This document shows positions 3,665-16,624 of a stretch of 64,000 bases of DNA, piece by piece. Numbering within the stretch: the first letter of the stretch is position 1; every line of letters begins with the position of its first letter. The stretch comes from a virus, in the IMG/VR virus record IMGVR_UViG_3300042691_008527, positions 9,888 through 73,887 of that record. One strand, given 5' to 3'. Position numbers and translations under genes: made by a program. The notes beneath the pieces are model-generated. The model searched no databases, was not told the DNA's origin, and saw nothing but the letters and a program-made list of their open reading frames with translations.

Positions 3665-4999
3665 ATGTCAGAGTCAGTAGGTACGCTTTATCCAACACAG
3701 ATACCATCGCTTTCTGATGCTGCTGATATTCAAGAAGCTCTTAGGCTTTATCATTATGGCGCATATCCAGGCACAGATCCTGGAGAATATAATCCTACAA
3801 ACTCAAACCCAGCAAGCCTTGTATCAAGCTCAATAGCTGGAACATTTAATAGCTTACAAGGTCAAATTACAACTCTTTCTGGCAGCTTAGGTATTCAGCC
3901 TAGTACCCTAACCACTAAGGGAGATATTCTTGCTGCAACTGCTGCATCTACTGTAACACGTTTTGGTGTGGGAGCAAATGGAACGGTACTAACTGCAAAT
4001 AGTGCAACTGCTACTGGTTTAGAATGGGCTACCCCAGTTGTAACAAACTCAAGCACCAACACGTTTACTAATAAAACAATGAATAATTTTTCTGTTACAG
4101 CAGGATCAAGCATTCTTGATACCAACACAAATGAGCTTTTGACTTTCCCATCTTTAGTGGCATCAGCAGTTAATAATATACAAATAAATAATTCTGCTAC
4201 TGGCGTAGCCCCAAGCCTTCAATCAATTGGAAATGATACAAATGTTGGCTTTAATATTATAACTAAGGGTACTGGATTAGCTCAAGTAAACGGTGTTCCA
4301 ATTGCAACAACTACAGACTCTCAAACTTTAACAAACAAAACTTTAACATCACCTTTGATAACTCTTAGTACAACATCTTCTACAACTGATGCTAGAATTT
4401 CTTGGGACACTACAAATAAAAAGATTCAAGTTGGTGATGGAACATCTGCAACAGATTTTGCGTCATCGACATTGAGAACAAATGCTGCAACGCTTTCATC
4501 TAATAACTATACTATAGTTCTTGCTGATAAAGATAAAATGGTTGAAATAGATAATGGTGCCACTGCATCTACTGTTACCATTCCAGCAAATGCAACAACT
4601 GCATTTTTACCAGGAACTCAAATTAATATTATTCAAACTGGAACTGCACAAGTAACTATATTGCCAGCATCTATAACAACTGCAACATTTTCTTCTGGAG
4701 GAGCTGCAGCAGCTACTACTTTTGTTATATCTACGCCAAATGCTAGCATTGCAGTTGGTCAAAAAGTTACGGGTACTGGTTTTGCAGATAATACATATGT
4801 TACAAATGTTGCTGGAACGACAATAACAGTAAGCCCAGCAATATCTTCACAGGTATCTGGAACAGTTACATTTAGTGTTGGAGTTATGGGAACTCCTGGA
4901 CTTAAACTTAGATCACGATGGTCTTCTGCAACTCTTATTAAGCGACCAACAGCAGCTGGTGTAGATGCATGGGTAGCAATTGGAGACCTTAGTGCATGA
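3665..4999 (+). CDS. Tail fibre protein
   Basis: TTKGDILAAT..VGANGTVLTANSATATGLEW and QTLTNKTLTSP fibre repeats; C-terminal GLKLRSRWSSATLIKR..W..IGDL domain. Confidence 0.75.
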   Translation: MSESVGTLYPTQIPSLSDAADIQEALRLYHYGAYPGTDPGEYNPTNSNPASLVSSSIAGTFNSLQGQITTLSGSLGIQPSTLTTKGDILAATAASTVTRFGVGANGTVLTANSATATGLEWATPVVTNSSTNTFTNKTMNNFSVTAGSSILDTNTNELLTFPSLVASAVNNIQINNSATGVAPSLQSIGNDTNVGFNIITKGTGLAQVNGVPIATTTDSQTLTNKTLTSPLITLSTTSSTTDARISWDTTNKKIQVGDGTSATDFASSTLRTNAATLSSNNYTIVLADKDKMVEIDNGATASTVTIPANATTAFLPGTQINIIQTGTAQVTILPASITTATFSSGGAAAATTFVISTPNASIAVGQKVTGTGFADNTYVTNVAGTTITVSPAISSQVSGTVTFSVGVMGTPGLKLRSRWSSATLIKRPTAAGVDAWVAIGDLSA

Positions 5000-6285
5000 A
5001 AATAGGCAACTCTGCTTCTTCATTTTTAAACGCCAATACAGATAGTTTTAATAGGGCTAATGATCCTACATCTCTTGGAATTTCTGATCGTGGAATTAGG
5101 TGGGGTGCTGTAAGAGATACCTGGCAAGTACTAGACAATGAAGCATATTCTGCAGCAAATCAAGCCTCATATGCTTTGGCAGCTGGTAGTGTCGGTATAA
5201 ATAATATTAATTCTAGAATTGTAATACCAGACGGTACTTCTGGAGCAGGTTTGGCATTTTGGGTAGAAGATGCAAATAACTGGTATGGTGTATTCCCATA
5301 TTATAATCAAACAGGAACTGCTGGATGCTTTGGTAGTGTCGTATATAATAATTCTGGTGCTTGTGGTGGATGTCCTACTACTAGTTATAGCTATCAAGTA
5401 TGCGATGTTTATAGTACAGACACTTCTAGCGGTTGCTGTAGCGGCATAACTAATGTTGCATCATCTACATATTGTGCTGGACCTTCCATTACTGGTCCTA
5501 CATCAACTGGTGTAATTACACCCGCTGGATGTTGCCCTGGGACTGCAACAACGTCTACATCATCTACTTGTACAACTGGTGGAACTGGGAATGTTTGTAA
5601 TACTGAAACCACATATGTAGAGTCTTGTTCTGGAAGCCAGCTATTTTGTTATCATAGTGGTGGTGGATGTACGCCGTCTGGATGTGGTGGTTGCTATGTC
5701 TATGATAGTGGACAAACAACATACTATACTTCTACATGTTCATACTCTGGACAATTTGTTAGTGGCAATGCCCCAGGTTGCGGTACATTCGGTGATCAGT
5801 GTGATTTTCCAGGTCAAGTATTTTCATTAACATGTTATGCTAGATATTGTTTTCAGCCAGTATATGAGCCAGTATATACTTATTATTATACTACGCTATA
5901 CTATACTGTATCTTGTTCTCAAACACAATATACTAGCCCAGGATATTCATATTGCTATAAGCCAAGGACAGAGAGTGGATATTATTGTAATCCCTATACG
6001 ACTACAATAACTACTACCTATGCTTATAAAGTAATAAAGATGGTTTCTGGTGTAGTTACAGAAATAGCTACTGTAACAGTACCTTCTGCTATACTAGGAT
6101 TAAGGGCCCAAACAAATGGTACCTCAATAAATATAACTGCATATTCTGATGTTAATCTTTCTAACATTATTGGACAGAGTAGCTATTCTGAGCTTTCTGC
6201 TACAAGAGGTGTTGGAGTTGGGGTACTATATGCTCCAACGCTGTATAATGGTTCATCAGTGTTAGATAATTTTGGAGTGGAGTAA
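4996..6285 (+). CDS. Putative fibre-tip adhesin: beta-sandwich with 24-Cys insertion
   Basis: ATGA overlap with fibre gene; DSFNRAN..GLAFWVEDANNWY..LDNFGVE lectin-like scaffold; all 24 Cys lie in nt 5326-5988. Confidence 0.65.
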   Translation: MKIGNSASSFLNANTDSFNRANDPTSLGISDRGIRWGAVRDTWQVLDNEAYSAANQASYALAAGSVGINNINSRIVIPDGTSGAGLAFWVEDANNWYGVFPYYNQTGTAGCFGSVVYNNSGACGGCPTTSYSYQVCDVYSTDTSSGCCSGITNVASSTYCAGPSITGPTSTGVITPAGCCPGTATTSTSSTCTTGGTGNVCNTETTYVESCSGSQLFCYHSGGGCTPSGCGGCYVYDSGQTTYYTSTCSYSGQFVSGNAPGCGTFGDQCDFPGQVFSLTCYARYCFQPVYEPVYTYYYTTLYYTVSCSQTQYTSPGYSYCYKPRTESGYYCNPYTTTITTTYAYKVIKMVSGVVTEIATVTVPSAILGLRAQTNGTSINITAYSDVNLSNIIGQSSYSELSATRGVGVGVLYAPTLYNGSSVLDNFGVE

Positions 6286-6286
6286 C

Positions 6287-6520
6287 ATGGAAAAAGGTGC
6301 AAGACCGTGGGATATTTTTAATAGAAATATTAAAAAGGTAGATGCAAGTATAGGTGATGAAAGAATGGAGATTTGTAATGCATGTCCATTTTTAATACAG
6401 GCGACTAAAACATGTACGAAATGCGGATGCTTTATGACTGCTAAAACAAAACTTCCGCATGCTTCATGTCCAGAAGGAAAATGGGGAGCTATCAAGATCT
6501 CTTTGAAAGAGGATATGTGA
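6287..6520 (+). CDS. Small six-Cys protein (DUF6171-like)
   Basis: ATG 6287 with GGAG SD; R..ICxxCP...CxxCGCFM..KT.L...SCP.GKW pattern. Confidence 0.65.
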   Translation: MEKGARPWDIFNRNIKKVDASIGDERMEICNACPFLIQATKTCTKCGCFMTAKTKLPHASCPEGKWGAIKISLKEDM

Positions 6521-6711
6521 TGAATAATATTGCTTTTGTAATTGATGAAGAAATTGTTTCTGTAGTTAACTGTGACGATCAACACGCTGCGGTTTTGTTA
6601 TCTGAGCCAATTATGGTTGATATCACGGATATGCCAAATGTTCATATAGGTTGGAAATATATTAATGGACAGCTTATCGCCCCAGAAATGCCAAGACCTG
6701 TAAATTCATAA
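6520..6711 (+). CDS. Putative tail fibre assembly chaperone (Tfa-like)
   Basis: ATG 6520 overlapping upstream TGA, GAGGA SD; IAFVIDEEIV...IGWKYINGQLIAP. Confidence 0.5.
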   Translation: MNNIAFVIDEEIVSVVNCDDQHAAVLLSEPIMVDITDMPNVHIGWKYINGQLIAPEMPRPVNS

Positions 6712-6721
6712 TTTTAAATAT

Positions 6722-6765
6722 AAAAAATACCCCCCGCTTTTAAACAGGGGGTATTTTATTTTTTT
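6722..6765. terminator. Bidirectional intrinsic terminator
   Basis: AAAATACCCCC / GGGGGTATTTT 11-bp stem flanked by A and T tracts between convergent genes. Confidence 0.85.
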
Positions 6766-6768
6766 ATA

Positions 6769-7347
6769 TTATGCAGGGAACTTTTTCATCCACTGCTTAG
6801 TTCTTGGAGTCATACCTTTCCAGGCAGTCCAATTTTTACCCCCAGCGCTCATATGATATGCAACCTGTGCATTAATGACAGGGTTCAGCAATTCGCTGGA
6901 AAAATTAATACCATATTTTTCTCTACGATCGGGACCAAGCATTCCAATCATATTGATTTGGAAAATACCAAAAGAACTGTCTCCAGTATTTGAATTTCCA
7001 TTAAATGCCAATGGTCTTCCATTAGATTCTTTTTTTGCTACAGCCCAAGCCTTCTTGAGACCTTCCCCACGAAAACCGACGGCATGTAAAAGTTTCTTCA
7101 ACTCTCTATCAGTCAAGCTGGTAGCATTCTGAAATTTATGAAGGTCGTTGAGATCTTTTTTGACCCTAACTAAGCTTTTAGGCTTAGAAACCAAAAAAAC
7201 CGCCTTAGCGGTCTTATCAGCAACTACCTTGGTTTCCTGTTTAATAAAATTATTCTCTGAGCTAAGGGCATTAGCCTTATTAGCCAAGATAGCAACTGCA
7301 AAAACAGTAGCCAAGACTCCAATCAGAAATTTTTGATCTTGCTTCAT
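6769..7347 (-). CDS. Secreted or membrane-anchored lytic transglycosylase (SLT, lysozyme-like fold)
   Basis: ATG at 7347 with AGGAGG SD; N-terminal hydrophobic segment; AVAKKESNG (catalytic Glu), GIFQIN, NPVINA, WTAW motifs. Confidence 0.8.
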   Translation of the reverse strand: MKQDQKFLIGVLATVFAVAILANKANALSSENNFIKQETKVVADKTAKAVFLVSKPKSLVRVKKDLNDLHKFQNATSLTDRELKKLLHAVGFRGEGLKKAWAVAKKESNGRPLAFNGNSNTGDSSFGIFQINMIGMLGPDRREKYGINFSSELLNPVINAQVAYHMSAGGKNWTAWKGMTPRTKQWMKKFPA

Positions 7348-7395
7348 ACTTTTTCCTCCTAGAAACAAAAAACACCTTTTCGGGTGTTAAGTATT

Positions 7396-7424
7396 AGTAT
7401 AACACCTAAAAATATTATTGTCAA
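7396..7424 (-). promoter_or_regulatory. Consensus sigma70-type promoter for the transglycosylase
   Basis: Minus strand TTGACA-17nt-TATACT with TG extension. Confidence 0.8.
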
Positions 7425-9634: not shown

Positions 9635-9996
9635 TGGCAACAGCATACAAGGTATTAGGACAAACTGGATCATCTGGAAATTTTGGTAATGGTGCACAAA
9701 CATTAACAGCTAATACAAATACAAATGTTTACACAGTTCCAGCAGCAACAGAAACAGTTGTTTCTACTATCACGGTATGCAATCAGGCATCTACTGCAGC
9801 TACTTTTAGAATTGCTGTAAGACCAGATGGTGCTGCTATTGCAACGCAACACTATCTTGCGTATGATACCCCAATTGCTGCAAACGATACTGTTGGCTTA
9901 ACACTTGGTATTACAATAAATGCTGCTGATATTATTACAGTTTATGCTTCTGCAGCAACAATGTCATTCTCAGTCTTCGGCTCTGAAACAACGTAA
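9634..9996 (+). CDS. Small beta-sandwich virion adaptor
   Basis: MATAYKVLGQ..YTVPA..STITVCN..SFSVFGSE; TAATG coupling. Confidence 0.6.
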   Translation: MATAYKVLGQTGSSGNFGNGAQTLTANTNTNVYTVPAATETVVSTITVCNQASTAATFRIAVRPDGAAIATQHYLAYDTPIAANDTVGLTLGITINAADIITVYASAATMSFSVFGSETT

Positions 9997-10008: not shown

Positions 10009-10596
10009 ATGTCAGTTAGCAGATTTTCCCAATCATCTTTACAAAATGGTTTTGAAAAATTTAATACCATTTGGGATGGAAAAACTGCTGTTGGCTCAAT
10101 GGAAGCCATCAGTTCTGTTACTTTGTCTAGTACTCTTGGATCTGTTAGCTTTAATAATATACCGCAAACATATCAACACTTAGAGCTTAGGACAATGGCT
10201 CTTGGAAGTAGCTCAAATCAGGATATTTTAATTAGATTTGGGTCTTCATCAACCATAGACTCAGGATCTAATTATTCTTGGCACGAACTTCGTGGAACTG
10301 GAACAAATCCTGTATCATCTACTGCAACTCCAAATGCATCTGCATTATATGTTTCATCTAATGCTATAGATTCAGCATTTCCAGATATTTCTATACTTAG
10401 TATTGTAGACTATTCAAATATAAATAAATATAAAACTCTCAGGGTTTTACGTGGTGGAGATAGAAATGGTAGCGGTACCATGGGTATCTTCAGTGGTAAT
10501 TGGAGAAGCTTTAATGCAATAGATAGTCTATTAATATATGTATCTGGTGGAAGCTTTAATGCAAATTCAACCTTTTCTTTATATGGGATTAAATAA
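10009..10596 (+). CDS. Cassette 1 subunit A (IPQTY beta domain with N-terminal peptide)
   Basis: F.NIPQTY.HL..R ... STFSLYGIK; paralog of 13339..13932. Confidence 0.7.
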   Translation: MSVSRFSQSSLQNGFEKFNTIWDGKTAVGSMEAISSVTLSSTLGSVSFNNIPQTYQHLELRTMALGSSSNQDILIRFGSSSTIDSGSNYSWHELRGTGTNPVSSTATPNASALYVSSNAIDSAFPDISILSIVDYSNINKYKTLRVLRGGDRNGSGTMGIFSGNWRSFNAIDSLLIYVSGGSFNANSTFSLYGIK

Positions 10597-11966
10597 TGCC
10601 TACATATACACCAATACAATCTATCACAACATCTTCAGTATCAACTGAGGTAAACTTTTCTAACATTCCTCAAACTTATCAAGATTTAGTTATTGTTGCT
10701 TCAATGAAAGGAACTACTGGCACTAACTCTGGAGTTGGTCTTCAGTTTAATGGAGACACCTCATCTCTATATTCGTTTACATATGCTCAGGGAACTGGAT
10801 CAGCAGCAGAAACTGCTAGATTGGCAAACTCATCTAGTATAAATGTTGGTCCAGGAAATGCTGGAATACCAACTGCAAGTAATACTTTTGGTCCATCTGT
10901 TTTTAGTATTCAAAACTATTCGAATACAACAACAAATAAAGCAGTTATGCATAGAGGAAACAATTCAGCCAATATGGTTGGTTTATTGACTGGACTATGG
11001 AGGTCAACCTCTGCAATAACAAGTATAAGATTATTCATTTATGCTGGAAATTTTGATTCTGGATGTACTTTTGATCTTTATGGAATATCGCCAGTTGCAG
11101 CACAAGCAACAAAAGCATCTGGTGGCACAGAGATATATTATGATTCAACATATGCTTACCACGTATTTAAGGGATCTGGAATTTTTACACCAAACCAATC
11201 ATTAAGTGCTGATATTTTAGTAATAGCTGGTGGAGGTGGAGGAGCTGGAGGAGGTGGAGGAGCTGGAGGACTTCTTGAATGGCAGTCTTGGCCCCTTACG
11301 GCACAAAGTTATCCTGTTGTGGTCGGTGCTGGAGGTCCTGGAGGAACAGATACCTTGCAGGGAGGAAATGGTCAAGACTCTCAATTTGGAACATTAGTTT
11401 TAGCAGGAACATATCCTCGTGGAGGTGGAGGTGGTGGTGCTATAACCACAAATCTTAGTGGTATTACTGGAGGTTCTGGAGGTGGAGGTGGGCCAGCAGA
11501 TCTAAGTGCTGGTTCTGGAGGAAGTGGTTTAGCTCCTGGACAAGGCAATTCTGGCGGTACGGCATTTCAAAGACAAGCAGGAAATGGCGGTGGCGGCGGT
11601 GGAGGTGGTTGTGGAAACCAACCTAGTGGAAGTGCTGGTGGTGTAGGAACTGGTGGAACTGCAACATCTGGTGCTGCTGGAAATGGAGGTAGAGGAGCAT
11701 TATATTACTCTTCATGGGGAGCCGTTACTAATACTGGACATAACGTAGGTGGAACATATTATTATTGTGGTGGTGGAGGCGGTGGATCAAACCTTGCAAC
11801 TCGTGGTACTGGTGGTCTTGGCGGTGGAGGAGATGGATATAAGCAAACAGGTCCAGTGCTTGGATCAAGTGGTATGACAAATACAGGAGGCGGTGGTGGC
11901 GCAGGATGGAACACTACTGGATATAATGGTGGTTCTGGTCTTGTAATTGTGAGGTATCCAAAATGA
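10596..11966 (+). CDS. Cassette 1 subunit B: IPQTY domain plus Gly-rich adhesin domain
   Basis: IPQTYQDL..IQNYSNTTTNK..LYGI then LVIAGGGGG..GGSGLVIVRY. Confidence 0.7.
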   Translation: MPTYTPIQSITTSSVSTEVNFSNIPQTYQDLVIVASMKGTTGTNSGVGLQFNGDTSSLYSFTYAQGTGSAAETARLANSSSINVGPGNAGIPTASNTFGPSVFSIQNYSNTTTNKAVMHRGNNSANMVGLLTGLWRSTSAITSIRLFIYAGNFDSGCTFDLYGISPVAAQATKASGGTEIYYDSTYAYHVFKGSGIFTPNQSLSADILVIAGGGGGAGGGGGAGGLLEWQSWPLTAQSYPVVVGAGGPGGTDTLQGGNGQDSQFGTLVLAGTYPRGGGGGGAITTNLSGITGGSGGGGGPADLSAGSGGSGLAPGQGNSGGTAFQRQAGNGGGGGGGGCGNQPSGSAGGVGTGGTATSGAAGNGGRGALYYSSWGAVTNTGHNVGGTYYYCGGGGGGSNLATRGTGGLGGGGDGYKQTGPVLGSSGMTNTGGGGGAGWNTTGYNGGSGLVIVRYPK

Positions 11967-13303
11967 GTATAGAAACAATGACAAAGCTTTCTTCATATAC
12001 GGTTGGTGTTGGAGGCATATCAGCTATTGATTTTATAAATATACCACAAGAATATACTGATCTTAAAATTGTTATAAGTGGAAGAACTGACGAATCAAGT
12101 GATCGCTCTGTTCCGTATGTTTATTTTAATAGTGATACTTCTGCAACAACAAACTATTCATATAGAAGGCTTTATGGTATAGCATCAATAGCTACAAGTT
12201 CTGACAATGGAGCAGGAGTTATTGGTGGATATATTTCTGGTGCAACTGCTACGGCAGGAGTATTTGGAAATTTAGAATTTTATATTCCTAATTATAGTCA
12301 ATATATGCAAAAAAGTATTACATCAGACGGAGTATCTGAAACTAACGCTTCTCCAGCAGGAATAGCCATAACAGCATCTTTATGGAATCAGGTAGCGCCA
12401 ATAACATCTATAAAAATATATGCTGGACTAAACACATCTATAAAGTTTGTTCAACATTCTACTGCTACATTATATGGAGTAAAAAATGCTCGTGCTACTG
12501 CAGGTAATTCAATAAAAGCAACAGGTGGATCAATTAGTTTTGATGGTACATATGTTTATCATACTTTTAATAATAGTGGTAGTTTTATACCTACAGCTGG
12601 ACTAACTATTGATTATTTAGTTGTTGCTGGCGGTGGGGGTGGAGCAAATGGCGGTGGTGGTGCAGGTGGTTTTAGAACATCTGCTGGAACTTCTGGTGCT
12701 AACTCTGCTTCAGAGTCAAAACTATCTTTATTTGCAAATACCCCATATACAGTTACAATTGGCGCAGGTGGAGCACCAGTTGCTTGGGCTAATAGCGGAA
12801 ATGATGGAAACAATTCTGCTTTTAGCACTATAAGTTCTTTAGGTGGTGGAGGTGGTGGTGGTCCAAATGCAGCTGGTAGAAATGGTGGTTCTGGCGGTGG
12901 AGCTGGAAATATTGCAGCGGGTGGTGCACCAGCTGCTGGAAATGGAACTGCTAATCAAGGCTTAGGCGGTGGTGGTGCAGTAAGTAATGGAAATAATCAA
13001 AGCGGAGGAGGTGGCGGCGGCGGAGCAAGTGTTGCTGGAGCTAGTTTTGGCTCTGGTGGTGCTGGTGGAGCTGGACTTGCTTCCACTATCAGTGGACGTT
13101 CTATAGTATATGCTGGTGGTGGCGGTGCAGCAAATATTGCTGGTGCTGGTGGTTCTGGTGGAGGTGGTGCTGGTGGTAGTGGTACTAATGGCGCTGGAAT
13201 AAATGGAACTGCTAATACTGGTGGTGGGGGTGGAGGCTCTATTTTTGGTACGCATGGTGCGGGTGGATCTGGAGTAGTAATTATTCGTTACTTAGCACAA
13301 TGA
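11963..13303 (+). CDS. Cassette 1 subunit C: IPQ domain plus Gly-rich adhesin domain
   Basis: VGVGG..IPQEYTDL..EFYIPNY..LYGV then YLVVAGGGGG..GGSGVVIIRY. Confidence 0.7.
   Translation: MSIETMTKLSSYTVGVGGISAIDFINIPQEYTDLKIVISGRTDESSDRSVPYVYFNSDTSATTNYSYRRLYGIASIATSSDNGAGVIGGYISGATATAGVFGNLEFYIPNYSQYMQKSITSDGVSETNASPAGIAITASLWNQVAPITSIKIYAGLNTSIKFVQHSTATLYGVKNARATAGNSIKATGGSISFDGTYVYHTFNNSGSFIPTAGLTIDYLVVAGGGGGANGGGGAGGFRTSAGTSGANSASESKLSLFANTPYTVTIGAGGAPVAWANSGNDGNNSAFSTISSLGGGGGGGPNAAGRNGGSGGGAGNIAAGGAPAAGNGTANQGLGGGGAVSNGNNQSGGGGGGGASVAGASFGSGGAGGAGLASTISGRSIVYAGGGGAANIAGAGGSGGGGAGGSGTNGAGINGTANTGGGGGGSIFGTHGAGGSGVVIIRYLAQ
13204..13236 (+). repeat. 33-nt exact direct repeat, copy 1
   Basis: TGGAACTGCTAATACTGGTGGTGGGGGTGGAGG, identical to 16519-16551. 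Confidence 0.9.
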
Positions 13304-13309
13304 TATAAT
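13301..13309 (+). promoter_or_regulatory. Extended -10 promoter (TGA-TATAAT) for cassette 2
   Basis: Overlaps stop codon of 11963..13303; upstream of AGGAG SD and GTG 13339. Confidence 0.6.
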
Positions 13310-13338
13310 AGACATGAAATACTTACTAGGAGAAAAAA

Positions 13339-13932
13339 GTGGCATTTAGAAATCTAAGCACATCAAGTATCTTCACTGGTGTTAAAACTAGTAAGCTATG
13401 GGATCAAACCACTTTTCCAGGTACTTTTGAAAGTATACAGACTGTTTATTTAGCTAGTGCTCAAAGTACTATTTCTTTTACTAATATACCCCAGACTTAT
13501 TCACATTTACAAATTAGAGTACTATCTCGTGACAATAGAGCAGCTACTGCTAATAGTGTTTTTTATCGTATTAATGGAGATACAGGTTCTAATTATTCCT
13601 ACCATATTCTTGCTGGAGATGGTTCAAATACTAGTGCTGGTGCAGCAAGTTCCACTACTTTTACTTATGGAATGATACAAACATCAGCCAGCACAACTTC
13701 TAATATATTTACCGCTGGTATTATAGATATACTTGATTATTCAAACACAAATAAAAATACTACAATTAGAACTCTTCAGGGTTATGATTCTAATGGTAGC
13801 GGTCATATAAGGTTAAATTCTGGTCTTTGGATGAATACTGCTGCTGTAACCTCATTTTTAATTTATGCTGATGCTAGCGCTAATTTTGTAGCAAATTCAC
13901 ATTTTGCGTTATATGGAATTAGGAGCGCATAA
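13339..13932 (+). CDS. Cassette 2 subunit A
   Basis: FTNIPQTYSHLQIR..DYSNTNKNTTIRTLQGYDSNGSG..FALYGI. Confidence 0.7.
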   Translation: MAFRNLSTSSIFTGVKTSKLWDQTTFPGTFESIQTVYLASAQSTISFTNIPQTYSHLQIRVLSRDNRAATANSVFYRINGDTGSNYSYHILAGDGSNTSAGAASSTTFTYGMIQTSASTTSNIFTAGIIDILDYSNTNKNTTIRTLQGYDSNGSGHIRLNSGLWMNTAAVTSFLIYADASANFVANSHFALYGIRSA

Positions 13933-15254
13933 TGCCAGCAGGAGAAACATATATAAAACTTAGGTCTACTACGCTGAGTAGCACTGCTTCATCTGTGGTT
14001 TTTTCTAACATCCCACAAACATTTACAGACCTTATCATAGTATTCAATGGAACTTTGAGTTCTGGAACAAGCGTTTATGGATTGCGATACAATTCAGATA
14101 GTTCAGGCCTTTATTCTTGGACTTCGCTTCGTGGTGATGGATCTGCCGCAAGTAGTGCAAGAGACACCAACTCTTCTCGAATTTTATGTGGATGGATTGG
14201 AACAAGTCAAGTAACTGAAATAATACAGATTCAAAATTATTCAAATAGCACAACGAATAAAACAAACATTACCCGCAACAATTCAACTGTTGCAAGCACT
14301 TATGTTTCCGCAAACGTTGGTCTATGGAGAAACACTGCTGCAATTACGTCTGTAACTTTATTGCCAGATAGCAGCACGTTTGCCTCTGGCTCTACCTTTA
14401 CGCTCTACGGCATAGCAGCATCTGCTTCACCACAAGCATCTGGTGGAACTATTACAACTGATGGAACATATTGGATACATACATTTACAAGTTCTGGAGT
14501 TTTTACCCCAATAAATGGTTTACAGGATGTTGACTATATGGTTCTTGCTGGTGGAGGCGGAGGAGCAGCAGGTGGTGGTGGTGCGGGGGGTTTACGCTCT
14601 ACTGTAACAGCTTCTGGAAGAGGGTCTTCAGTTGAGTCAAGAATAAATTTAAGCCCTGGATCTTATGTTGTAACTGTAGGGGCTGGCGGTAACGGTAACA
14701 ATTCTTATAGCGGTGGTGCTGCTACTAAAGCAGGTGACAATGGTAGTGATTCAGTATTTGCAAGCATTACATCTTTAGGCGGCGGCGGTGGTGGTTCTGC
14801 TGGAAATAATTCTTTCCCATATGTAGCAAAGAACGGTGGTTGTGGTGGTGGCGCCTCTTATTCATCAGGAACTGCAAATAGAGGTTTAGGAACAGCTGGA
14901 CAAGGATATGATGGTGGTGCAGATACTATTGATGCAGCACCTTACCCTGGTCCTGGCGGTGGTGGTACTGGTCAAGATGGTCAAAGTCCACCAAACTCAA
15001 GCACTGCTGGAGCTGGTGGTAATGGAACCGCAGTAGCTATAAGTGGTTCATCTGTAACTTATGGTGGCGGTGGCGGAGGCGGCGTTTATGGAGGTGGCAG
15101 CGGTGGTGCTGGAGGATCAGGTGGTGGAGGAAGTTTTAGTAATCCAGGAGGAAATGGAACAGTTAATCTTGGCGGAGGTGGAGGAGGTACAGTAAATAAT
15201 GCTGTTGGAGGTAATGGTGGAAGCGGTATTGTAATTGTGAGGTATCCACGATAA
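13932..15254 (+). CDS. Cassette 2 subunit B with Gly-rich domain
   Basis: IPQTFTDL..IQNYSNSTTNK..GSTFTLYGI then Gly-rich domain ending GGSGIVIVRY. Confidence 0.7.
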   Translation: MPAGETYIKLRSTTLSSTASSVVFSNIPQTFTDLIIVFNGTLSSGTSVYGLRYNSDSSGLYSWTSLRGDGSAASSARDTNSSRILCGWIGTSQVTEIIQIQNYSNSTTNKTNITRNNSTVASTYVSANVGLWRNTAAITSVTLLPDSSTFASGSTFTLYGIAASASPQASGGTITTDGTYWIHTFTSSGVFTPINGLQDVDYMVLAGGGGGAAGGGGAGGLRSTVTASGRGSSVESRINLSPGSYVVTVGAGGNGNNSYSGGAATKAGDNGSDSVFASITSLGGGGGGSAGNNSFPYVAKNGGCGGGASYSSGTANRGLGTAGQGYDGGADTIDAAPYPGPGGGGTGQDGQSPPNSSTAGAGGNGTAVAISGSSVTYGGGGGGGVYGGGSGGAGGSGGGGSFSNPGGNGTVNLGGGGGGTVNNAVGGNGGSGIVIVRYPR

Positions 15255-16624
15255 TGGCTAAAACATATAAAGCATTACAGACTGTTGTTGTAGGAGCAGG
15301 AGGTGCTGCAAGCATTAATTTTACAAACATTCCACAGAACTATGATGATCTTATTATAAAACATAGTCTTAGATCTAATCATGCACAAATTTATGAATAT
15401 TGTGGGGTAAGGTTTAATAGTAACAGTTCATCAATTTATAGTCTTAAAAATCTTCGTGGTAATGGCTCTACCGTAATTAGTCAAACTCTTACCAATCAGA
15501 CAAGATTTGAGTTTGAAATGGCGGAAGGAAATACAGCAACATCAAACACATTTAGTAATGGTGAGTTTTATATCCCAAATTATAGAGGAAGTGCAAATAA
15601 GTCTGTAAGTTCTGAATCGGTCCAAGAAACAAATGCCACCCTTGCTTATTCTGCTATGGATGCTGGAATCTGGGCAAGCACTGCAGCAATTACAGATATT
15701 CAAATTTTTCCTACTGTTGGAACTTTATGGAATCAATATTCTATGGCTACTCTCTATGGCGTAGGTGGTGCTCGTGCAACTGGTGGTACTATAACTGCTG
15801 ATGGATTATATACATATCATACTTTTACATCAAGTGGAGCTTTTATACCTCTTGAAAATATAGAAGGAATTGATTATCTTGTTGTTGCAGGTGGTGGAGG
15901 CGGAGCTGGATGGTACGGTGGCGGAGGTGGAGCTGGAGGTCTTAGATCTAGTAGAGTAAGAACTGGTGGTGGGGGATCAGTTCAAAATCAAATTAATGCT
16001 ATTGCTGGAACAACATATTCGGTAACTGTTGGTTCTGGAGGTGCATCTCAAACAAATGGAAATAACTCTATATTTGCTAATGTAATGTCTACTGGAGGAG
16101 GACGTGGTGGAAGCTATCAGTCTAATGCTCCTGGTGGTAACGGAGGTTCTGGAGGAGGTGGTGGTGCTGGTAATGCTGTAGGTGGTGTTTGGCTTCCAGG
16201 AGGAACTGGAACTGCAAATGAAGGATATGGCGGTGGTACTGGACATGCATCTAATGCTGGTGCTCCAGGAGGCGGTGGTGCAGGTGCTGCTGCTAGTAAT
16301 GCACCAGCTTCTCCAAATGGAACTGCTACAGATGGTGGCATAGGTGTTGAGCTTGCTGTTTTTGCTAATCCAACAGGAACTGGCTCTAATAATTATTATG
16401 CAGGTGGTGGAGGTGGTGGCTCTACTGTTGGCGGTGGTAATGGAGTATATGCTGGAGTTGGCGGTCTTGGTGGTGGAGGCGCTGGCTCTCTTGTTGCAAA
16501 CAGTGGAACTGGTGTGGCTGGAACTGCTAATACTGGTGGTGGGGGTGGAGGATCTGCCTACAATGTAAACTCTGGTGGAGCTGGTGGATCTGGTATAGTA
16601 ATTGTTAGATATCCAAACACTTGA
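15254..16624 (+). CDS. Cassette 2 subunit C with Gly-rich domain
   Basis: VGAGG..IPQNYDDL..EFYIPNY..LYGV then Gly-rich domain ending GGSGIVIVRY. Confidence 0.7.
   Translation: MAKTYKALQTVVVGAGGAASINFTNIPQNYDDLIIKHSLRSNHAQIYEYCGVRFNSNSSSIYSLKNLRGNGSTVISQTLTNQTRFEFEMAEGNTATSNTFSNGEFYIPNYRGSANKSVSSESVQETNATLAYSAMDAGIWASTAAITDIQIFPTVGTLWNQYSMATLYGVGGARATGGTITADGLYTYHTFTSSGAFIPLENIEGIDYLVVAGGGGGAGWYGGGGGAGGLRSSRVRTGGGGSVQNQINAIAGTTYSVTVGSGGASQTNGNNSIFANVMSTGGGRGGSYQSNAPGGNGGSGGGGGAGNAVGGVWLPGGTGTANEGYGGGTGHASNAGAPGGGGAGAAASNAPASPNGTATDGGIGVELAVFANPTGTGSNNYYAGGGGGGSTVGGGNGVYAGVGGLGGGGAGSLVANSGTGVAGTANTGGGGGGSAYNVNSGGAGGSGIVIVRYPNT
16519..16551 (+). repeat. 33-nt exact direct repeat, copy 2
   Basis: Identical to 13204-13236. 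Confidence 0.9.

Follow-up and report, generated by a model that had tools for sequence, protein, structure and literature searches.

A 24-cysteine segment in a probable phage tip protein

How can a protein made in the cytoplasm by a bacterial virus accommodate two dozen cysteines in one segment of an otherwise cysteine-free domain, how are these cysteines paired, and what would such a segment be for? These questions are raised by a putative tail fiber tip protein, here called P0001, whose gene lies in a 64,000-nucleotide stretch of DNA (positions 9,888 to 73,887; "the window") of the 73.9-kb IMG/VR virus record IMGVR_UViG_3300042691_008527, which is estimated to be 68% complete. The gene is an uninterrupted frame at window positions 4996 to 6285 on the plus strand, with a product of 429 amino acids. 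Our best explanation as a whole, to which we assign a probability of about 0.6, is that P0001 is a fiber tip in which a hairpin-like excursion, laddered by disulfides, projects from a ConA-like jelly roll.

All 24 cysteines of P0001 (residues 111, 123, 126, 136, 147, 148, 160, 179, 180, 192, 201, 211, 218, 225, 230, 233, 248, 262, 269, 280, 285, 307, 320, and 331) are inside residues 111 to 331 (nucleotides 5326 to 5988), and the 208 flanking residues, i.e., residues 1 to 110 (4996 to 5325) and 332 to 429 (5989 to 6285), contain none. The 221 residues of this segment are dominated by threonine (35), serine (31), glycine (30), tyrosine (27), and cysteine (24). The motif NNWYGV begins at residue 94 (nucleotide 5275) and YKVIK at residue 344 (nucleotide 6025), and the tripeptides RYC, VSC, SYC, and YYC end at C285, C307, C320, and C331, respectively. 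A sequence-only reading of this DNA had described such a segment splitting a cysteine-free domain, and its counts, boundaries, and quoted motifs were all located as it had given them. It had also grouped the outbound cysteines into clusters of 3, 3, 3, 2, and 5; this division proved subjective, because the gaps separating the clusters (10, 12, 12, 10, and 15 residues) are no bigger than some gaps within them (including 12, 11, and 19).

Predicted fold of the scaffold

The AlphaFold2 model of P0001, built with a 117-sequence alignment, has predicted local distance difference test (pLDDT) scores of 90 to 98 for residues 11 to 100 and 341 to 429 (96 to 98 from residue 341 onward) and of 87 for residues 101 to 110, and these parts belong to one single domain. 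Structural matches of the model include CBM66 (4b1m; Z = 16.9, root mean square deviation 2.7, 153 residues aligned), the receptor-binding domain of mycobacteriophage TM4 gp23 (9n6a; Z = 15.8), a baseplate protein of mycobacteriophage Douge (8zdo; Z = 14.2), and numerous ConA-like lectins and glycoside hydrolase accessory domains, and the structural alignments cover model residues 19 to 429, i.e., both flanks. In the model, the two flanks jointly form one ConA-like jelly roll, a two-sheet sandwich of about 200 residues. The search that gave these matches is independent of Foldseek, in which the whole P0001 model had no match at an E value of ≤0.001, because the insert interrupts the domain; the Foldseek list consisted mostly of legume lectins, galectins, and LG domains, all at E values of ≥0.05.

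At the sequence level, P0001 matched no family in Pfam (E values up to 0.1) or PHROGs (E values up to 0.01), the family profile matched no PDB sequence, and no curated family (LamG, CBM, or similar) could be assigned. Ligand residues are not conserved across the ConA-like superfamily. The earlier characterization of the protein as lectin-like stands at the level of the fold and does not extend to a sequence family.

The insert as a family trait

An exhaustive homology search returned 155 representative clusters of uncultured phage proteins, which, together with IMG/VR and metagenome loci, gave a family set of 281 unique sequences. Both flanks are conserved across the family, and the insert between them ranges from 0 to ~450 amino acids with 0 to 46 cysteines. 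Insert-free homologues (~190 amino acids) have a beta-hairpin turn of 0 to 3 residues at the site of the P0001 insert; the segment is therefore genuinely inserted, at the turn of a hairpin, which bears out the earlier claim that it splits a beta-sandwich. Compared with the flanks, inserts are enriched in cysteine (11.4% versus 0.4%) and tyrosine (9.8% versus 3.7%), and charged and aliphatic residues, including Asp and Glu, are depleted, with histidine at 0.3%. Insert length is correlated with cysteine number (r = 0.87), and this, along with the joint gains and losses of modules described below for loci L097 and L011, supports the earlier suggestion that the design is extendable.

Short motifs such as CTPSGC recur in the inserts. 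In a clade with 36 to 40 cysteines (L097 to L099 and P0009 to P0013), the insert is quasi-palindromic, with GC(V/T)PSGCC close to each end and with CGTQC modules in tandem in one half set against CxxNC modules, also in tandem, in the other. A cysteine-free insert occupies the same hairpin site in L175 (positions 1075 to 2253) and also in P0111 and P0028, and it consists of Tyr/Pro/Ser-rich, PPSYYAG-like repeats; an insert of this Tyr/Pro-rich type has 47 tyrosines in 183 amino acids. A second homology search with a clade profile found no additional members of the P0001 clade, and a metagenome locus scan and viral scans with P0001, the full alignment, and the cysteine-free P0111 and P0028 yielded no loci from these runs.

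Disulfides or metal sites

The number of cysteines per protein is even in 203 and odd in 25 of 228 members (P = 8e-36), and the excess persists when one member per 60% cluster is counted (139 even versus 16 odd). Judging from these counts, cysteine pairing is evolutionarily maintained. The even totals are split 113 versus 90 by their remainder on division by four, i.e., multiples of four are not preferred. Evenness would mark disulfide-bonded extracellular proteins, and multiples of four or histidine partners would mark metal knots; the former was found and the latter were not. The even parity, the lack of a preference for multiples of four, and the near absence of histidine therefore point to disulfides rather than Cys4 or Cys/His metal sites, and the metal knots that the sequence-only reading had kept as an option are disfavored.

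Lanthionine-type thioether cross-links were also considered and were rejected because thioethers would not need paired cysteines, so that the even parity would be unexplained; no maturase-like gene stands out among the open reading frames of the tip unit. Structural disulfides have been shown in the tail of the freshwater cyanophage Pam3 by cryo-electron microscopy, mass spectrometry, and dithiothreitol treatment, and the fibers of that phage are tethered to the wedge by intermolecular disulfides (PMC9942802).

Probable nested and local pairing

Co-variation was assessed in clusters of ≥55% identity, in separate clades, as the joint presence or absence of pairs of cysteine columns. Among 25 clean two-cysteine events, 7 joined the kth cysteine from the start of the insert with the kth from its end (1.8 expected; P = 0.0012), and such mirror ranks accounted for 6 of the 11 events between cysteines more than 30 residues apart (0.69 expected; P = 1.7e-5), though 8 of the 25 were local, i.e., between neighboring cysteines. 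For example, the 5th and 5th-from-last of 26 cysteines, 166 residues apart, were lost in L006 and L011, and the 3rd and 3rd-from-last of 14 were gained in P0064, in both cases by plain substitutions in a conserved context. Larger units also changed jointly: L011 lost a block of three cysteines along with one cysteine 76 columns upstream (a "3+1" unit), and L097 gained one CxxxC module per half simultaneously. Single pairs, not quartets, were gained and lost across the family.

The clade of P0001 (P0001 to P0007) shows a similar linkage. C320 occurs in three members (P0001, P0003, and P0004) but not in P0005 and P0006, and it is tracked by a third cysteine beside C136 and C147, which is C148 in P0001 and P0003, lies in the column of P0001 residue 139 in P0004, and is missing in P0005 and P0006. 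Four cysteines (C248, C262, C269, and C280) are invariant in this clade and belong to a small subdomain, the "knob," described below. The cysteines before and after the knob number 16/4, 25/5, and 24/4, so that the parities of the outbound and return halves shift together and are not broken by insertions and deletions among the homologues.

Mirror-rank and local events together therefore support a nested ladder plus local loops, with long-range rungs near the base, and not a pure ribbon. The nested pairing proposed earlier, of which the exact groups of 4, 4, 4, 2, 6, and 4 are conjectural, agrees with the mirror-rank excess in independent clades and with the tracking of C320 by the third cysteine of what had been called cluster 2. 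As for the related expectation that units of three outbound cysteines and one return cysteine are gained and lost jointly, the loss in L011 fits it, and many gains, as in the clade of P0004, are local pairs.

Predicted shape of the insert and location of its variation

Within the insert, the only confidently predicted part is a four-stranded beta-sheet subdomain at residues 241 to 285 (nucleotides 5716 to 5850; pLDDT 84 to 91), which contains the four invariant cysteines. Basal strands at residues 128 to 139 and 320 to 331 are predicted at pLDDT 52 to 74, and the rest of the stalk region is unpredicted. The halves on the two sides of the knob are 130 and 46 amino acids long, and the insert is therefore not a simple two-stranded ribbon. 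The mirror-rank co-variation favors an antiparallel apposition of the two halves, and a regular beta-ribbon stalk, as envisaged by the sequence-only reading, is hypothetical.

The variation among relatives is concentrated far from the scaffold. Identity between P0001 and P0003 in successive segments is 95, 90, 72, 40, 42, 74, and 98%, a gradient that is symmetric from both junctions and reaches its minimum at residues 201 to 285 (40 to 42%). When close pairs were compared throughout the family, conservation was lower in the insert than in the flanks in 107 of 129. The tip gene itself is nearly invariant across freshwater runs. In these runs and in the 99% variant P0002, there are four nonsynonymous changes (D142N, Y219S, S251P, and A282Y), each of which falls within the insert and spares the cysteines; of the five synonymous changes, only that at codon 167 falls within the insert, the other four being in the N-terminal flank. 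A diversity-generating retroelement was considered as the origin of the variability and rejected, with no reverse transcriptase and no template repeat: RVT_1 was not found in the 73.9-kb record (~68% complete), and the insert DNA has no repeat elsewhere in the window.

Genomic setting

The tip gene sits among tail-fiber-like genes, with portal, protease, and ribonucleotide reductase genes farther along. Immediately upstream, and overlapping the tip start with its stop (ATGA), is a putative fiber-shaft gene of 444 codons (3665 to 4999, plus strand; weak PHROG match), counterparts of which were found in loci L002, L003, L006, L011, and L015. From this gene position and the fold, P0001 is most likely the distal, host-recognizing tip of a tail fiber.

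The fiber and tip genes are translationally coupled to two small genes on the same strand. The first, at 6287 to 6520, starts 2 nucleotides past the tip stop, at a presumed ATG at 6287, and encodes a small DUF6171 protein with six invariant cysteines (CxxC..CxxCxC..CP; Pfam PF19668, 4e-07). The second, at 6520 to 6711, encodes 63 amino acids from a coupled TGATG start, carries the conserved motif IAFVID..LLSxP, and has a sole, weak Pfam match to DUF7723. A hairpin with a 15-bp stem (6724 to 6757), between convergent genes, closes this four-gene unit. The gene converging on the shared hairpin (6769 to 7368) is the only sizeable minus-strand gene nearby; its product is an SLT_3 lysozyme-like protein with a hydrophobic N-terminal segment, and its promoter matches 11 of 12 consensus positions at 7424 to 7396. 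The tip unit is flanked by seven Gly-rich paralogues (phrog_2295; GGTGGTGG-type DNA repeats) at 44 to 2739 and 10596 to 16624.

The portal protein shares 46% identity with its counterparts in large Streptomyces phages, and an actinobacterial host is therefore plausible for this uncultured phage; the actinophage marker WhiB was looked for across the record and not found. DNA nearly identical to the window is present in freshwater and aquatic metagenomes from 11 studies, and no RNA data set was listed among those containing the stretch. Neither the tip nor the first 20 kb was matched in tblastn and megablast searches of 50,697 phage records.

DUF6171 and the second small gene

Of 103 unique IMG/VR relatives, 75 have a DUF6171 homologue no more than 300 nucleotides downstream of the tip, 90 have one within 4 kb, and 73 have the IAFVID..LLSxP gene downstream. 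At least one of the two was present in every locus with enough DNA. DUF6171 occurs mostly in viruses (the Atlas search returned other DUF6171 clusters only) and is also found apart from such tips, e.g., in Stenotrophomonas phage Moby. The model of the protein is moderately confident (pLDDT 79), and its structure search gave no match above Z = 2.4; a complex prediction of tip and DUF6171 scored 0.00, which speaks neither for nor against an interaction. A role for DUF6171 in maturing the cysteine-rich insert is only a hypothesis.

The DUF6171 gene also appears to have a wider distribution. In freshwater runs, contig depth over its core (6388 to 6503) is 10 to 20 times that of the surroundings, and this excess is due to numerous diverged contigs with flanks unlike the window. 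The gene therefore seems to be common to many different phages of the same waters, conserved nearly at the DNA level. In the cultured cyanophage S-IOM18 of Synechococcus (L170, 3098 to 3752), a 137-amino-acid protein with a thioredoxin-like CPQC motif is overlapped at its end by a DUF6171 homologue; this region lies behind fiber-like genes, one with 9 cysteines, and is followed by a 201-amino-acid protein that is oxygenase-like by sequence appearance.

Other arrangements occur among the relatives. In L175, with its cysteine-free insert, the DUF6171-like gene has lost the CxxCxC motif. Tandem tip paralogues were observed in L024 (2646 to 5239), each followed by its own IAFVID copy, and in L225 (1024 to 3314), with two tips and two IAFVID matches; DUF6171 was not seen near either tandem within the locus DNA examined. 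Many loci, L053 (5381 to 6139) among them, have behind the tip and small-gene unit a conserved ~250-amino-acid protein (phrog_7084, with a faint DUF6065 match), which this window lacks.

Proposed mechanism and alternative explanations

We propose that the phage, an uncultured freshwater relative of the large actinophages, carries a fiber tip in which the turn between strands at residues ~95 to 108 and ~337 to 350 has been expanded to a 221-residue excursion poor in charged and aliphatic residues. The excursion would be hairpin-like because the scaffold fixes its two ends side by side, and in the functional, extracellular virion its 24 cysteines would form 12 disulfides. Cysteines near the start would bond cysteines near the end as nested rungs, one of them probably between C148 and C320 and another, farther out, involving C331, and the remaining cysteines would close short local loops. 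The four-cysteine beta-sheet knob (241 to 285) would lie near the far end, and the distal third (201 to 285), which differs between close relatives, is probably what touches the host surface. In oxic water, the disulfides would confer rigidity and protease resistance. Anchored ends may let oxidation run as a zipper, avoiding a search among ~3e11 pairings, and the cotranscribed DUF6171 and IAFVID proteins may aid folding or assembly.

Several observations weigh against this proposal. Most of the insert has a pLDDT of <50, with residues 140 to 236 and 286 to 320 unconfident, and its halves are unequal. Parity is indirect evidence for disulfides. Local co-variation events are as numerous as stated above, and in the clade of P0004, four local pairs (spacing 2 to 7) were gained in the outbound half only. 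Several mirror-rank events are supported by two to four sequences each, and two of these (L120 and P0059) depend on a gappy alignment and are weaker. The receptor-binding role is drawn solely from gene position and fold. Finally, DUF6171 was not seen within the locus DNA examined for some very cysteine-rich relatives, and the only cysteine-free relative with known context has a degenerate DUF6171-like copy 1.2 kb downstream.

Some of these points would fit an insert with neither a hairpin stalk nor systematic pairing between its halves, in the form of a string of locally bonded mini-modules (beads of a knottin or loop kind) or of a compact cysteine-rich globule. The neighboring-cysteine events, the local pairs gained in the clade of P0004, the recurring CTPSGC and tandem CGTQC and CxxNC modules, and the unconfident prediction across the supposed stalk are all what such an arrangement would give. 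We nevertheless consider it unlikely, as long-range mirror-rank co-variation is far above chance, C320 co-varies with a cysteine ~170 to 180 residues upstream, conservation falls off symmetrically from the two junctions, and the scaffold hairpin holds the ends of the insert side by side. Zinc or Fe-S knots would be compatible with synthesis in a reducing cytoplasm and would have a parallel in the metal-site-like cysteine pattern of the adjoining DUF6171 protein; but the mod-4 split despite extreme evenness, the scarcity of His and depletion of Asp/Glu, and the turnover of cysteines as single pairs rather than quartets leave metal binding very improbable.

Only a slim chance is given to the insert being a substrate for cross-linking or modification instead of a folded device for recognition, through intersubunit or baseplate disulfides or through glycans on Thr/Ser. 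The fibers of Pam3 provide a precedent for the former (PMC9942802), and many relatives have extra conserved neighbor genes (phrog_7084/DUF6065-like). The composition of the insert is also like that of cross-linked structural proteins in general. However, mirror-rank co-variation in one chain favors intramolecular pairing, and no transferase or oxygenase is present in the unit of the window, which ends at the hairpin past two small genes; glycosylation would also be compatible with the laddered excursion. A stronger version of our proposal, which we regard as doubtful, is an antibody-like display system, i.e., a hairpin zipped by mirror-order disulfides, extendable rung by rung and with a swappable tip, in which DUF6171 would be a phage thiol-oxidizing, -isomerizing, or -holding factor for a domain of 24 to 46 cysteines in a reducing cytoplasm.

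Significance and comparison with known systems

Receptor-binding proteins determine phage host range, and the nested-disulfide excursion on this phage tip is likely a host-recognition device. In this family of tips from freshwater phages, the variable surface does not seem to be made of the loops of a compact domain; it seems to be provided by a long excursion that is poor in hydrophobic residues and that presumably owes its structure mainly to disulfides, up to ~20 of them. If so, phage adhesins would have a new structural principle, and the tips would offer a display scaffold that, like knob-domain antibodies, is compact, evolvable, and protease resistant. A further question would then be how a bacterial virus achieves the correct formation of twelve or more disulfides in a protein made in the cytoplasm, and the DUF6171 gene would be the obvious candidate in that regard. 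We found no description of this architecture in the literature on DUF6171, disulfide-rich phage receptor-binding proteins, and TM4 gp23.

The predicted scaffold has several counterparts. TM4 gp23 (9n6a), the Douge protein (8zdo), CBM2 of the Lactobacillus phage J-1 Dit (5ly8), and CBM66 (4b1m) share the jelly roll (Z = 12 to 17, 150 to 180 residues aligned), and the three phage domains also have in common with P0001 a location in a tail fiber or baseplate gene cluster. P0001 has no sequence-level family match in Pfam, PHROGs, or PDB, and sugar binding is putative here. We know of no 221-residue, 24-cysteine hairpin-turn excursion in any of them (the structures themselves were not inspected). 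The gene order resembles that of lambda stf-tfa and of T4 gp37 with gp38 and gp57A, in which a fiber gene is accompanied by small assembly helpers; here, too, tightly coupled conserved small genes follow the fiber gene, but the candidate helpers are DUF6171, with its six invariant cysteines, and the 63-amino-acid protein, neither of which resembles Tfa or gp38.

With regard to the cysteines, Pam3 is likewise a phage of oxic fresh water with a cytoplasm-assembled tail fiber apparatus that depends on disulfides, as P0001 probably does; its bonds are few and intersubunit, in contrast to the 12 putative intramolecular, domain-building bonds of P0001, and the proteins are unrelated (PMC9942802). 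The order of pairing proposed here has a parallel in the twin CX3C and CX9C proteins.

In those proteins (small Tims and CHCH domains), mirror-order disulfides staple an antiparallel hairpin. They resemble P0001, as proposed here, in their nested order, and CxxxC modules have been gained in both halves at once among the relatives of P0001. However, the twin CX3C and CX9C proteins are short helical hairpins with two bonds that are oxidized through the Mia40 relay, whereas the P0001 family would have up to ~20 bonds in a helix-poor, Thr/Tyr/Gly-rich segment with no known oxidase.

The bovine ultralong third heavy-chain complementarity-determining region (CDR-H3), a "stalk and knob" antibody excursion with a disulfide-bonded knob, offers a further comparison, and it was the analogy drawn from the sequence alone. 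In both cases, a long excursion with a high content of Tyr, Ser, Gly, Thr, and Cys and an even number of cysteines emerges from a hairpin between adjacent strands of a beta-sandwich. The excursion of P0001 would also resemble that of the antibodies in having a small distal unit, putatively disulfide bonded, and variation that appears to be concentrated distally. The likeness holds for the placement of the excursion at a sandwich hairpin turn and is one of analogy, not homology, as the fold of P0001 is predicted to be a jelly roll and not an immunoglobulin domain. Furthermore, the disulfides of P0001 appear to run as rungs along the excursion and not in the knob alone, and its halves are unequal. 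Its diversity would arise through ordinary evolution and the gain and loss of modules rather than through somatic mechanisms.

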